Part shown: piece by piece, positions 4,502 to 62,763 of the stretch | Position numbering within the stretch: position 1 is the first letter of the stretch | Layout: every line of letters begins with the position of its first letter | Origin: a virus | Direction: 5' to 3' (one strand) | DNA length: 64,000 nt | Virus record (IMG/VR): IMGVR_UViG_3300019776_000521 | Span: 9,556 to 73,555 of that record | The notes under the pieces: generated by a model | Databases searched by the model: none | What the model saw: only the letters and a program-made list of their open reading frames with translations | What the model was told of the DNA's origin: nothing | Program-made: the position numbers and the translations under genes

Positions 4502-4578
4502 GCGCCCGTAGCTCAGTTGGATAGAGCGTTCGGCTACGAACCGAAAGGCCGGGAGTTCGAGTCTCTCCGGGCGCGCCA
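4502..4578 (+). tRNA. tRNA-Arg (anticodon ACG)
   Basis: Full cloverleaf: acceptor GCGCCCG/CGGGCGC, D arm GCTC/GAGC, anticodon arm TTCGG-CTACGAA-CCGAA, T loop TTCGAGT, encoded CCA; 77 nt. Confidence 0.97.
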
Positions 4579-6227: not shown

Positions 6228-6720
6228 TGATTACCTCCATGCAGGAGGCGTGTGATTTGAGCCTGTCTTTCCACAATCCAGAACAACTCCTGTTGCCTGG
6301 TGCAGAGCAATCCTGTCCATTGGACCTGTTCCACATCAGGATTGCGTTGCAGGCTCCTGCATAGTCTTCCGCGTTCAATCGCTTGACCAGAGTCGAATTG
6401 CAGAATGCACTTGAGCCAATGTTGTAGCTCAGGTTCACGTACAGATCGTACTCAGGCTGACTCAAGGGAACCTTGACGCATTGCTTTAAGGCTCCTTCAA
6501 ACTGGTTGGCATCAACCAGTGCACGCTGAATAGCGGGGACTACCTTGAGAGAGTCTCCCTGTTTCACACCTTCGGTCGTACCAAACCCAACGGTCGGTAC
6601 TTTCCATCCATAGGTGGGATCAGGATAAGCTTTCTCACGATAGTCTTCACGCTGAAGGATTCCCAGGAATCCAGCAGCTGAAAGCGCCAGTACGCCAACA
6701 ACCATTCGAGGATGCTTCAT
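6220..6720 (-). CDS. SAR endolysin, GH24 lysozyme
   Basis: Gly/Ala-rich N-terminal anchor, E...D...T triad (QRE...YPD...PT), YNIGSSAFCNSTL motif. Confidence 0.92.
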   Translation of the reverse strand: MKHPRMVVGVLALSAAGFLGILQREDYREKAYPDPTYGWKVPTVGFGTTEGVKQGDSLKVVPAIQRALVDANQFEGALKQCVKVPLSQPEYDLYVNLSYNIGSSAFCNSTLVKRLNAEDYAGACNAILMWNRSNGQDCSAPGNRSCSGLWKDRLKSHASCMEVING

Positions 6721-6950
6721 TCGTACATCCCCATTCGACGGTAGTGCTCAGCCTCTTCTCGCTTGTCCTGCTTGTGCTTGTAGTACCAGTTGATGGCAAA
6801 GCCTCCCAAGCCAAGAGTGATACCGAGAAACACTCCAAACTCGCTGGAAAGCAGCCACCCAAGGACACTGGTGCTTGCGCCTGTGTAGGTAGCTTTGCTG
6901 CCTACTGCTGACATCGTTGCATCGAATGTAGTCTGTTGTTCTGGTGTCAT
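6717..6950 (-). CDS. Holin
   Basis: 77 aa, TM segment, INWYYK plus charged tail; ATGA-coupled to the endolysin. Confidence 0.85.
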   Translation of the reverse strand: MTPEQQTTFDATMSAVGSKATYTGASTSVLGWLLSSEFGVFLGITLGLGGFAINWYYKHKQDKREEAEHYRRMGMYE

Positions 6951-7012
6951 AGATAAACTTTCTTTTTGGTTTTAAAGCAAATACTTGCTAAACATTGTAC
7001 GTTCACGCTTAT

Positions 7013-7765
7013 TCACTGAAAATGACGCGAAGGGGAATCTGTACGAATCAGGCGGATAAATACAGCCCCTACATCCAAGTGCCACCAGTGAGTTCTGAAG
7101 TCGGCTTGCCCTGGATAGTCGTGGTGAGTTTTATGCTGCCATTCGCCCCCTGTGGGAAAAAGAAACTCCAACCAGGGTAGATTCCTAGCACCACCTTGGC
7201 GGCGGTGACTAAGAAGTTGGTGAATAACGCCAAAAGCTTGCGCAGTGCCCATTGGCATAAGGTACGCAAACAAAAACACAGTTGGAGATACGAACAGCAG
7301 AGCGCCAGCGTACACCCCCCACAAAGCAAACCAGTAACGGTGAATAAAGTCTAGCGTTGGGTCTCCAGCTATTTTCTTTACTCGCTCCATAACCATGGGC
7401 ACCCGACGGAACTGCTTAAAAATTAGGTACTTCCAGTTGACTTCGTGTGGATCAAGATCAGTATCGGCGTGGATGTGGTGAGTGGTATGCGCAGAAGCCC
7501 AGACGTAGGGCGAGCCATACAACAAAGTCGTGCTGTAGAACGCTATGAAGTTGTGCCAGAAGCGCGAAGTCTTGAACGCTCCATGGGTGAAGTATCGATG
7601 CAGCCCACCAGACACAATAGCCGTGTTGAAATGGTGAATGAAGAACCACGCTAAAAGCCACCAAGGACTCACCAGGCCCGCTGTTGCGAGGGCCACCCCA
7701 AAGACAACGCCAATCACCCCGATTACGTATCCAAAGCCTATATGCCACCCTGCATGCCTAAACAT
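7013..7765 (-). CDS. Membrane fatty-acid desaturase (delta-9/acyl-CoA type)
   Basis: His boxes HRYFTH, HTTHH, GGEWQHKTHH; DxDPH motif; several TM segments; AGGAGG before ATG 7765. Confidence 0.9.
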   Translation of the reverse strand: MFRHAGWHIGFGYVIGVIGVVFGVALATAGLVSPWWLLAWFFIHHFNTAIVSGGLHRYFTHGAFKTSRFWHNFIAFYSTTLLYGSPYVWASAHTTHHIHADTDLDPHEVNWKYLIFKQFRRVPMVMERVKKIAGDPTLDFIHRYWFALWGVYAGALLFVSPTVFLFAYLMPMGTAQAFGVIHQLLSHRRQGGARNLPWLEFLFPTGGEWQHKTHHDYPGQADFRTHWWHLDVGAVFIRLIRTDSPSRHFQ

Positions 7766-59457: not shown

Positions 59458-60363
59458 ATGGAATCCATTCGACAGATCGTTCTCCAAGAGATGAACGAGC
59501 AGCGGTACAACCGCAAGCACATTGATACCAAGATCCGTGAAGCTATTCAAGCTCACCCGGACATGAAAGAAAAGCTCAAGCAAGGCGTAGAGCTAGTCAA
59601 GAAATACATGGCTGGCAAGTACTACGAGTCGAAGATGAAGCGGCTGGAACAGCTGCAAAACCTCGACATCGAACTGCTGGTCATGGACATCTTCATTGGC
59701 ATTGCGTATTCGCAAAAGCCTGAGCTGTTCACAGCTGTATCTGCCCAGTTGGCTGCTCGACTGAAGTTCAGCGATCGCACTGAAGCCATCACTACTGTTG
59801 CTGAAATCATGGCCTTGCTCTGTACCACAGACGCATTCGACATCATGAAAGCCGACAAGTCTGCAAGCCTGATGGTGGTGTCCCGCATACCACTGTCAGG
59901 CGGCTTGATTGCCTTTATCGACAACAGCCAGTACCTGCCACCCATGGTGTGTGAGCCGCTTGAGTTGACCCACAACTACAGCAGCGGATACCTGACCCAC
60001 AACGATTCGTTGATCCTGGGCACAAGTAATCATCACGATGGGGACATCTGTCTGGATGTTCTCAACATCATGAACAAGGTCGCTTTGAGGCTTGATACAG
60101 ACTTCCTGTGCACTGTCGAAGAAGAACCTACGTTCGACTTGGACAACCAAGAAAAGACCGATCAGTGGAACGCATTCAAACGGCAAAGCTACGAGTTCTA
60201 CAAGCTCATGGTGGACCAGGGTAACAAGTTCTATCTCACCCACAAGGTAGATAAACGTGGGCGCATCTATTCGATGGGCTACCACATCCATACCCAAGGT
60301 ACATCATTCAAGAAAGCACAACTCGAGTTTGCCAAAGAAGAACTTGTTACAGGTGTTCCATGA
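59458..60363 (+). CDS. RNA polymerase II subunit 1 (N4 gp15-like)
   Basis: YLPPMV..P, HKVDKRGRIY (DxxGR), QGT.FKKA. Confidence 0.9.
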   Translation: MESIRQIVLQEMNEQRYNRKHIDTKIREAIQAHPDMKEKLKQGVELVKKYMAGKYYESKMKRLEQLQNLDIELLVMDIFIGIAYSQKPELFTAVSAQLAARLKFSDRTEAITTVAEIMALLCTTDAFDIMKADKSASLMVVSRIPLSGGLIAFIDNSQYLPPMVCEPLELTHNYSSGYLTHNDSLILGTSNHHDGDICLDVLNIMNKVALRLDTDFLCTVEEEPTFDLDNQEKTDQWNAFKRQSYEFYKLMVDQGNKFYLTHKVDKRGRIYSMGYHIHTQGTSFKKAQLEFAKEELVTGVP

Positions 60364-60602: not shown

Positions 60603-61661
60603 ATGGCATTGAAACATTTCACTGGTTGGCAATGGCTTCTCATTGATGCCGCCAACCAATTCGGTCTCGACAAGCTGAACTTCGAGGAGCGCATTCACTG
60701 GACTGAGATCAACCTCAATCATCTGGAAGCTCAGGATCTCTATGAGCAGGCTGAAACCAAGCCCCTGTACCTCAAGGCAGTGCAGGCCATTCGCAAGGCC
60801 CAGCAAGGCTTGCCTACCGGCCACATGGTCGGTGTGGATGGCTGCTGCTCAGGCATCCAAGTCATGTCCGTGCTCACTGGCTGCGAAGCTGGTGCTACGG
60901 CTACTGGTCTGGTGAATCCTGACAAACGTGCAGATGCTTACTCGGCATGCACGGAAGTCATGAACACAATCCTGGGTGGTGGCCTGGTCGTATCACGATC
61001 AGAAGCCAAAGATGCCCTAATGACGACCATGTACGGCAGCAAAGCCATGCCCAAGAAGATCTTCGGTGAAGAGACGCCTGAGCTAAATGCGTTCTATCAG
61101 GCTGCTCATACCATCGCTCCTGGCGCATGGGAGCTGCTGCAGGATCTTCTGGCCAGCTGGCAACCCTACGCTCTGCATCACTCCTGGAAGATGCCTGATG
61201 GCTTCGATGCTCGCATCAAGGTCATGAAGAAAGTCGATGCACGCATTGAGGTTGACGAACTGGACCATGCCACCTTCACCTACGAGTTCTTCGAGAACGT
61301 GGGTAGCAAGACTGGCTTGGCCAATGCAGCCAACATCACCCACAGCGTGGATGCCTACATCCTTCGCTGTATGCACAGGCGCTGCAACTACGATCGTAAG
61401 ATCGCAGAACGCGCAGCCATCATGATCGAGATCGAGATGCTGCAAAGGGTGCTGGGAGCCACCAGAACCGTCTCCAGGCCCTCCGGTCAGGCTGGCTACT
61501 GCGTGGACCAGTACGAGCGCAGCACGGTCCCTGATGTGGTCATCATGCCCTTCCTCTCCGAGGAGAACCTTCAGCAGCTGTCCAGGCAGCATCTGGAAGC
61601 CCTGGCAGGAATCATCAATGGCATGCTTCAGTACCAGCCCTTTGAACTGGTGACCATCCAT
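60603..61661 (+). CDS. RNA polymerase II subunit 2 (N4 gp16-like), exon 1
   Basis: GLDK..FEERI.W, DGCCSGIQ, R...K..LMT..YGS, ANITHSVD; ends at TIH. Confidence 0.93.
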
Positions 61662-62485
61662 TAACCTCATGGTGGATGTAAAACGCATTTAATTGCTGGA
61701 ACCCTAAGTCCGAAAGGATATGGCAATCAGCAGCGAAGAATACCTAAATCCTATATCACCATGTATTGCAATACATGCAGAGAAAGGGGTTTTATGAACC
61801 AAGAAACGCAAGACTTCTTACATTTCAAAAACCACTAATTGGTATCCGTAGATTTTGCTACTGGACTCATAGTCGCCAAAGGCGGTCGATGGGGAAACCA
61901 CATCTATCACGATGTGGGTAGCAAGAATCCTGACGGATATATTCGTCTATGGTGTAACGGAAAACTACGGATGAAGCATCGTCTAATTTTCTTTCTGGCC
62001 CATGGCTTATTGCCTAAACCAAAAGAGGAAATTGATCACATCGATAAAAACAGGTCGAACAATTCTGTTAACAACCTGTGTATTGCCTCCAAAAGAGTCA
62101 ACAACATGGGAAGCAACAACAGAAAAATCGGTCGCTTTACCGTAGAAGAAGTACATACCGTGTGTCGTTTGCTACAAACAACCGACTTATCGGATGAAAA
62201 TATTGCAGAGCAAACAGGAATGTCCAGAGCAACCGTCAGAGACATTAAATGTCGGCGTTCTAGGCAAGCCATTGCTTTAGCGTATTCTTGGCCACATCGT
62301 GGGTATTAACGTTCAGAGACCATCGAAAGGCATCGCAAGATGAACCAAGTAGAGTACGCCCCAAGCGGGGTGGAAACAGTGCGGCTCGAAAGAGCATGAT
62401 ATGGTCCGATCCCGCAGGAAACTGTGAGGCAGAGAAGGTTTATCAACTTCTCGGAATAGCAATAGCGAAGCTATTTGAACATTTG
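61662..62485 (+). mobile_element. Group I self-splicing intron (824 nt)
   Basis: P1 CAUCCAU/GUGGAUG with U.G at the splice site; P AATTGCTGGAA 61691, Q AATCAGCAG 61725, R GTTCAGAGACCA 62311, S ATGATATGGTCC 62396; terminal G 62485. Confidence 0.92.
61794..62309 (+). pseudogene. Intron-encoded HNH homing endonuclease with in-frame TAA at codon 15
   Basis: DGYIR..., HRLIF, EIDHID.NRSNNSVNNL, C-terminal HTH; RBS and ATG 61794 in frame, TAA at 61836-61838. Confidence 0.7.
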
Positions 62486-62677
62486 GATGAGTTTCGCGCT
62501 CATGCGAACAACGTTAACTGGGTGCGTTACCAGTATAAAGAGATCCTGGCTGACCTGGCTGATAGCTACCTGCTTGATGACCTGTTGAGCCAGATCCATG
62601 GCACACCAGGCATCTTCAGCAAGCTCTCCAGCACGCTTGGCAGCAAGATCAGGGAAAGCAACTACGCGCTCTGCTGA
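62486..62677 (+). CDS. RNA polymerase II subunit 2, exon 2
   Basis: Starts DEF, restoring TIHDEF; ends IRESNYALC; spliced product 416 aa. Confidence 0.9.
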   Translation, partial: DEFRAHANNVNWVRYQYKEILADLADSYLLDDLLSQIHGTPGIFSKLSSTLGSKIRESNYALC

Positions 62678-62723: not shown

Positions 62724-62763
62724 AGTGGACTTATCCGAAAGGGTAAGTCCACTTTTTTTTTTT
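62724..62763 (+). terminator. Rho-independent terminator
   Basis: AGTGGACTTATCC-GAAA-GGGTAAGTCCACT followed by a T run. Confidence 0.9.

Follow-up and report, generated by a model that had tools for sequence, protein, structure and literature searches.

In a 64,000-nt window of the IMG/VR virus record IMGVR_UViG_3300019776_000521 (73,555 bp, completeness rating 100%; "the window" hereafter denotes this whole stretch of DNA, which is part of the record), we found an 824-nt element, at 61662–62485, that is almost certainly a group I intron in the gene encoding the large subunit (RNAP2) of RNAPII, an RNA polymerase of the phage, inserted exactly between the histidine and the catalytic aspartate. 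The element is made up of a ribozyme of ~308 nt and a 516-nt open reading frame (ORF) region with an HNH endonuclease domain, and none of 12 close relatives has it. A first-pass annotation of the window had proposed a group I intron between the same two residues of RNA polymerase subunit 2, a proposal that covariation among related copies and the existence of intronless homologues now support. While the element type, a mobile intron with an endonuclease gene, is well known, the insertion site is new; no description of an intron at the His-Asp site of RNAP2 was found in the literature searched, supplementary files lying outside that search. The features of the intron, the RNAPII genes and their 3′ flank given below are all on the plus strand.

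The split falls between His353 (CAT, ending at 61661) and the motif C aspartate (GAT, starting at 62486). Exon 1 closes with ACC ATC CAT (61653–61661), exon 2 opens with GAT GAG TTT (62486–62494), and an in-frame TAA (61662–61664) stops the unspliced message right at the 5′ splice site, in agreement with the earlier claim that unspliced RNA would stop at once and lack the aspartate, whose codon comes only at 62486. Aligned to the RNAP2 of LUZ7 (414 aa), the last codon of exon 1 corresponds to H351 and the first codon of exon 2 to D352, and the PHROG 2051 profile runs unbroken over the junction, from position 338 in exon 1 to position 339 in exon 2. All 12 IMG/VR relatives (65–76% protein identity) have an uninterrupted T[IV]H-D[ED]F and end 63 codons later. 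One of these intronless relatives, L005, matched the solved structure of N4 RNAP2 (6dt7_B) over its full length (residues 4–413, E = 2.8e-57), where the motif reads HDCF, and once the insert is removed the window gene likewise has full-length homology to N4-type RNAPII large subunits, including the His-Asp of motif C. The interrupted His-Asp was placed on residues 811–812 of T7 RNA polymerase, in a stretch that by itself was non-significant; D812 of T7 RNA polymerase is a catalytic, metal-binding residue.

The insert has a P1 with a U.G pair, a core of P4–P6 and P3–P7–P8 with a bulged P7 nucleotide, and a terminal G together with P10, features that place it among the group I introns. In P1 (61655–61678), found both by RNAalifold and by single-sequence folding, exon bases 61655–61661 (CAUCCAU) pair with an internal guide at 61672–61678 (GUGGAUG), which puts U61661.G61672 at the splice site. 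The P10 guide strand CUCAU (61666–61670) faces AUGAG of exon 2 (62487–62491). P3 joins CGCAUU (61684–61689) to AGUGCG (62378–62383), and P4 (61694–61698 with 61728–61732, spanning 61694–61732) surrounds P5 (61703–61723, GAAA loop at 61712–61715), in which CCUAAG..UAUGG resembles the 11-nt GAAA-tetraloop receptor and is a candidate for this motif. P6 pairs GCG (61733–61735) with CGU (62310–62312) and holds the ORF in its loop. P7 (62316–62407) is formed by 62316 plus 62318–62323 (GACCAU) with 62401–62407 (AUGGUC being 62401–62406), A62317 is bulged, and the helix encloses P7.1 (62329–62346, GCAA loop), P7.2 (62357–62372), the 3′ strand of P3 and P8 (62384–62395, GCUC GAAA GAGC). Downstream, the segment 62411–62476 folds into P9 (62411–62429, GAAA loop), P9.1 (62432–62452) and P9.2 (62454–62476, pairing 62454–62460 with 62470–62476), and the intron ends in the terminal G (omega-G) at 62485, a G that precedes GAT in all nine copies whose 3′ ends were read.

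All proposed helices are fully paired in the window copy. Single-sequence folds of the two halves of the intron recover P1, P4, P5, P7, P7.1, P7.2, P8, P9, P9.1 and P9.2, with z values of −2.1 and −2.9, and RNAalifold applied to each half separately also recovers the core. No P2 is apparent in the window intron, and the window holds no second copy of the intron core. Two extra hairpins, P7.1 and P7.2, separate P7 from the 3′ strand of P3, a mark of subgroup IA in the scheme of Michel and Westhof, and on their strength we assign the intron to the IA type, lacking P2 and carrying its ORF in the P6 loop. The elements that the first-pass annotation had named by reading the sequence (the exon ends, P1 with its U.G, P10, P7 and the terminal G) all lie where it had put them.

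Support for this fold comes from an eight-copy MAFFT alignment of the window intron with the related copies on contigs L021, L022, L023, L025, L017, L026 and L027. Over a test structure of P1, P10, P4, P5, P6, P7 and P7.1 (292 cells), 93.8% of the cells were paired, compared with 25.6–39.9% when the 3′ partners were slid by 1–3 columns; 10 pairs changed on both sides, compared with 0–3 in the slid controls, and the observed covariation score was matched by none of 500 shuffles. Compensatory changes across the copies maintain P1, P3, P5, P6, P7, P7.1, P8 and P10, while P4 is invariant and uninformative for the pairing test. The splice-site U.G of P1 is present in 8 of 8 copies, its outermost pair being C-G in five, A-U in two and a mismatch in one. 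The P10 guide, read by eye, tracks the exon, being YUCAU where exon 2 begins GAU GAR and CAAU where it begins GAU UGY, with one mismatch each in L021 (GUCAU) and L025 (CAAC). In P5, RNAalifold found one position with CG in four copies and GC in three, and another with UA in four, CG in two and AU in one. P6 is 100% paired across the eight copies, with two of its three pairs changing on both sides (CG/CG, CC/GG, GG/CC); the fourth pair of P7 is U-A in six copies and C-G in two; and P7.1 has 97.9% of its cells paired, with changes on both sides at three of six pairs. P7.2, taken from the single-sequence fold, pairs in the window, L021, L022 and L023, and the RNAalifold table lists compensatory changes in P9 and P9.2.

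Alignment register affects some of these figures. The two-pair proximal helix of P5 was one column off register in the pairing test, where it scored 31% paired; the RNAalifold register is right and reveals a C-G to G-C exchange. MAFFT was out of register at the 3′ strand of P3, P7.2, P8 and P9 for four distant copies, and P3 and P8 were re-derived sequence by sequence with position rules: all six positions of P3 then pair in 8 of 8 copies, in five sequence versions, and P8 is a perfect stem in every copy, again in five versions.

Several observations weigh against a spliced group I intron. At its gathering threshold (50 bits) Rfam returned no intron match in the window, only a tRNA. The check with a group I covariance model suggested by the first-pass annotation gave a match to RF00028, at 23.5 bits (E = 0.0016, from a 1.2-kb search in E-value mode, spanning 61618–62428), and this match thus stays under the threshold. 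Its alignment is good over the P3–P6 and P7′–P9 segments and skips the ORF, with the R element misplaced by Infernal upstream of the ORF; the 516-nt ORF in P6 splits the RF00028 model. Individual copies depart from the fold: P7 contains an A.C mismatch in L022 and L023, and in L021 the outermost P1 position is an A.G mismatch, besides the mismatch in P10. The endonuclease frame is not intact in the window, where a TAA occupies codon 15. Finally, the material from four public runs, none of them on record as RNA, consisted of contigs in which no 61661/62486 splice joint was found, and a 151-nt contig with a single-letter difference is unspliced across the 3′ splice site but may derive from DNA; these contigs speak neither for nor against splicing. 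The single joint present in run X1, 61404 to 62543, does not coincide with the splice junction and probably consists of conserved parts of a relative.

The gene in the P6 loop (61794–62309) encodes an HNH homing endonuclease with an HNH_3 domain and a C-terminal part resembling a helix-turn-helix (HTH). Its product scored 49.1 bits with Pfam HNH_3 (PF13392; cut-off 24.8), 13 PHROG HNH or endonuclease families also matched, and the C-terminal part had weak HTH matches; a comparison of the protein with solved structures gave no significant relative. The interrupting TAA lies at 61836–61838, and the listed open frame resumes at the TTG at 61839 and runs to 62309. Codon 15 encodes Gln in 7 of 7 relatives, whose frames are intact, the 14 residues before it are conserved, and position 61836 is C in contigs of related copies from 4 of 4 public runs. 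Relative to L021, the gene has a ratio of nonsynonymous to synonymous substitution rates (dN/dS) of 0.054 at a dS of 0.93, indicating that the frame was under purifying selection almost until now. The TAA may have arisen very recently, it may reflect a mistake in the assembly, or reinitiation at the neighboring TTG may make it tolerable. The window's tRNA gene (4502–4575, Rfam 68 bits) has an anticodon read as ACG (Arg) and therefore is no suppressor able to read this TAA. With a recent premature stop in its endonuclease gene, the window intron is probably a passenger now, yet one that must splice for RNAPII to be made.

Upstream of the endonuclease start, a hairpin at 61760–61777 (CAUGUAU..AUACAUG) is followed by a Shine-Dalgarno-like AAGGGG at 61784–61789. 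The hairpin corresponds to a near-perfect palindrome, CATGTATTGCAATACATG, lying just upstream of AAGGGG, and its CATGTAT is invariant in the eight aligned copies; in the minimum free energy fold the AAGGGG region pairs with 61746–61752. The region 61760–61789 may regulate the translation or the transcription of this gene.

Introns at the same site occur in divergent phages. A search with the HNH protein retrieved seven distinct metagenome contigs (L021, L022, L023, L025, L026, L027 and L017, the last equivalent to L024) that share the layout of exon 1 up to the His, an HNH ORF, and exon 2 from the Asp, with exon 1 proteins 27–64% identical to that of the window by tblastn; contig L026 stops 8 nt into exon 2, so those bases are all of its exon 2. 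Vibrio phage D456 (L035, OZ195695; 730–2837) has a same-site intron whose junctions we read, and 26 more Vibrio phage records (27 with D456) gave identical matches to the HNH query at the same coordinates. The D456 record lists an 'RNA polymerase' of 346 aa ending in TIH*, an 'HNH endonuclease', and a 'hypothetical protein' that starts from a TTG one codon before the Asp, just the truncated polymerase that the first-pass annotation had expected standard gene callers to report. A junction-pattern search of IMG/VR added L037 (72,982 bp; minus strand, ~6438–7130), with a same-site intron of 693 nt that has the 3′ ribozyme half of the window intron and a different, shorter HNH ORF, and which looks like an endonuclease-gene swap. 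An early in-frame stop is kept in all copies, at once in L021, L022 and L023, and as a TAA in J1/3, within five codons, in L025, L017, L027 and L026.

Conservation is higher in the intron than in the exons, with nucleotide identities between the window and L021 of 87.3% for the intron, 67.4% for exon 1 and 61.1% for exon 2, which indicates mobility, and the window's closest RNAP2 relatives (70–75% nucleotide identity) are without it. In run X2, a 1008-nt contig spans both splice sites at ~91% identity and continues into the exon 2 of another lineage (..KAHPNNINW), and a contig of run X6 crosses the 3′ splice site into an exon 2 that is again another lineage's (..KAHANNMNW). A selfish mobile element is what the patchy occurrence, the presence of an endonuclease gene and the excess conservation of intron over exons point to. 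The identity contrast, the X2 and X6 contigs and L037 fit horizontal spread by homing along with endonuclease-gene turnover, and from the same-site copies and the conservation contrast we infer that the HNH enzyme would cleave the intronless allele.

Beyond these same-site copies, matches of the intron DNA to a phage collection were confined to the core and took in no more than 14% of its length. Many contigs from freshwater and wastewater runs, at high depth, match only the P4-P5-P4′ core (61691–61738) and diverge on both sides; one of them continues past a short hairpin at P6 as far as the R element and appears to be an ORF-less relative of the intron. On the IMG/VR contig L036 (67,833 bp), the string ATCCAT-TAA..GGTGGATATAAAAC (~6253–6281) ends a capsid-like frame (..AGVIH*) near a LAGLIDADG-like ORF. 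A further intron, resembling this one in its P1, may lie there; a simple pattern search for R and S elements there found none.

The codon at the target site differs with the presence of the intron. The Asp codon is GAT in all nine intron-bearing copies whose junctions were read (L037 apart), and it is GAC in 8 of the 11 intronless alleles examined (11 of 13 loci, L010 and L016 being omitted as near-duplicates of L009). The U of GAT pairs in P10, and co-conversion, a splicing requirement and immunity of the target site would each explain the pattern. A bolder possibility, which we put forward as speculation and think unlikely to be right, is that members of this intron family with an intact endonuclease act as weapons between co-infecting N4-like phages, cutting the codons of the rival's RNAPII catalytic site and thereby blocking middle transcription, much as PhiPA3 uses gp210 against PhiKZ, that GAC is an immunity variant of the target, and that the window copy has just lost its weapon.

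A regulatory role is less probable still. The first-pass annotation had gone on to suggest that the early-to-middle transition depends on GTP- and Mg-dependent self-splicing as a physiological checkpoint, and one could imagine splicing that senses GTP, Mg or the translation state. The intron does sit in the enzyme of N4 middle transcription, an assignment that Willis and colleagues reportedly made in 2002; splicing of T4 introns is linked to translation and to the host's growth state, as Sandegren and Sjoberg are said to have found in 2007; and in every copy an in-frame stop comes early, ahead of the core. Yet early in-frame stops are common to phage introns in general, and nothing in the sequence speaks for a checkpoint. 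Moreover, LUZ7 and the 12 nearest IMG/VR relatives all do without the intron, so the early-to-middle switch does not need it, and the distribution, the endonuclease gene and the intron's greater conservation favor a selfish element.

Very improbable, in our estimation, is that RNAP2 has become a gene in pieces, split by a free-standing HNH gene, with parts that are translated separately and assemble. Such an arrangement has a parallel in a split ribonucleotide reductase with assembling parts, which Friedrich and colleagues reportedly described in 2007. The last three bases of the intron, ATG in L027 but TTG in the window as in the majority of copies, could supply a start codon in frame with exon 2; the D456 record has a coding sequence starting at that TTG; and N4-type RNAPII is already a two-piece enzyme. 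However, no Shine-Dalgarno-like sequence precedes the TTG in the window, and the triplet is AGG in L026. The break would also separate adjacent residues of the catalytic motif, and ~300 nt of non-coding flanks hold a group I fold through compensatory changes, which this arrangement leaves unexplained unless RNA structure is selected. Equally hard to credit is a real intron that has lost splicing in the window phage, leaving an RNAP2 pseudogene or a record that represents a defective genome: the nonsense codon in the endonuclease gene could mark the start of decay and no splicing was seen in contigs, but every helix of the window copy is paired, both exons are intact and in frame, the record is rated complete, and the accessible part of one comparative account lists RNAPII as a core gene among N4-like phages (PMC5418858).

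Under the favored reading of a self-splicing intron, the RNAP2 gene and the intron would be transcribed as one pre-mRNA, on which ribosomes would halt at the TAA right after the 5′ splice site. An external guanosine would attack after U61661, at the U.G pair of P1, and the freed exon 1 would then attack after G62485, with P10 aligning exon 2. Ligation would yield a 416-codon frame (..VTIH-DEF..) in which motif C and the catalytic Asp are restored. An intact HNH enzyme would cut the intronless alleles of a relative infecting the same cell; with the intron-bearing copy as repair template, these alleles would acquire the intron, which would thus spread by homing. N4 middle transcription uses RNAPII, a heterodimeric T7-like polymerase, and by analogy with N4 biology the spliced mRNA would be needed for active RNAPII.

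The genomic setting is that of an N4-like podovirus, judged by gene order and best matches. The small subunit of RNAPII (N4 gp15 or RNAP1-like, 301 aa) is encoded at 59458–60363 and matched PHROG 2166, 'N4-like RNA polymerase' (E = 5.9e-103). Exon 1 of the large subunit (N4 gp16 or RNAP2-like) occupies 60603–61661, with 353 codons ending in ..ELVTIH, and matched Pfam RNA_pol (54 bits, E = 1.6e-14), positions 2–338 of the PHROG 2051 profile (E = 1.7e-117) and residues 1–351 of LUZ7 RNAP2 (48% identity). Exon 2 (62486–62677; 63 codons and a stop, DEFRAHANN...NYALC) matched positions 339–401 of the same profile (E = 5.9e-17) and LUZ7 residues 352–413 (44% identity). A plus-strand ORF of 77 aa is the third frame listed beside the RNAP1-like gene and the 353-codon frame. 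On the 3′ side of the RNAP2 gene, a 13-pair hairpin followed by a T10 run (62724–62763) resembles an intrinsic terminator. An unusual RNAP2 of 653 aa in PJNP053 (L002, OR941788; 1108–3069) was considered as an intein and rejected; its residues 203–390 match a Pfam GFP domain (E = 8.7e-9), and it looks like an engineered reporter fusion, neither intein nor intron.

One consequence concerns annotation: a single intron-containing RNAP2 gene stands where a truncated RNA polymerase, an HNH gene and a hypothetical protein are listed, in no fewer than 27 deposited Vibrio phage genomes and in several metagenome contigs. A phage RNA polymerase of the single-subunit type, split at its catalytic Asp, joins the genes invaded by group I introns. 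Ten sequenced same-site copies (the eight aligned, D456 and L037) make up a small family with rich covariation, including one lineage with a swapped endonuclease gene and one copy whose endonuclease gene is freshly broken. The group has cultured members, and the family could be used to study the homing cycle and possible interference between phages. Knowledge of how such introns work is unchanged by the finding.

The td intron of T4 with I-TevI is a phage group IA intron whose endonuclease ORF is looped out from P6, and the window intron resembles this type in its core, predicted to be self-splicing, of group I and equipped with P7.1 and P7.2, its ORF in a peripheral loop by P6, the in-frame stop just inside the intron, and a site in the conserved catalytic region of an essential enzyme. 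It differs from td in its host gene, which encodes a T7-like RNA polymerase subunit and not an enzyme of nucleotide metabolism, and in its endonuclease, which is HNH_3 instead of GIY-YIG, as well as in having no apparent P2. Conserved catalytic sites are, according to the accessible part of an earlier account, an established location of introns and inteins (PMC2814812).

For PhiPA3, the part of the report available to us describes a virion RNA polymerase gene interrupted, next to conserved aspartates, by a putative group I intron, and experiments showing that gp210, the HNH homing endonuclease inside this intron, nicks the intronless allele of the rival PhiKZ and confers a competitive advantage (PMC11620839). 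Both introns thus bear HNH genes and lie next to conserved aspartates in a phage RNA polymerase gene. By the same partial account, the PhiPA3 polymerase is a multisubunit (beta′-like) enzyme of a nucleus-forming jumbo phage of the Chimalliviridae, whereas the RNAPII encoded in the window, from an N4-like podovirus, is heterodimeric and of the single-subunit type; the window's endonuclease gene, in addition, is interrupted, and the two introns and endonucleases are compared here by description only.

Among N4-like phages, Pseudomonas phage Pa_WF01 (L001, OQ848593) has an annotated Intron_gpI at 1722–2740 (RF00028, 82.5 bits) in the same RNAP2 gene family. This intron lies near codon 80, unlike the window intron at motif C, and carries a 222-aa ORF without a Pfam family. 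The statement in the first-pass annotation that DNA-metabolism genes hold most phage introns is somewhat dated beside the Pa_WF01 intron and, as far as the available text goes, that of PhiPA3 (PMC11620839). A homing-endonuclease insertion in the RNAP2 of Pseudomonas phage ZC08 concerns the same host gene family and is described, in the accessible part of its report, without mention of an intron or a site (PMC5418858). The N4-like Vibrio phage pVa5 is said, in the portion available, to have an intron in its thymidylate-synthase gene (PMC5746245).

Sequence matches to the intron also lie in DNA polymerase introns of FelixO1-like Salmonella and Escherichia phages, whose P3–P6 core (intron positions 9–77) is ~84% identical to that of the window and, in BPS15Q2, is accompanied by a second matching piece that ends at intron position 695, over an annotated endonuclease. 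These introns occupy another host gene, and only 8–14% of the window intron aligns with them.

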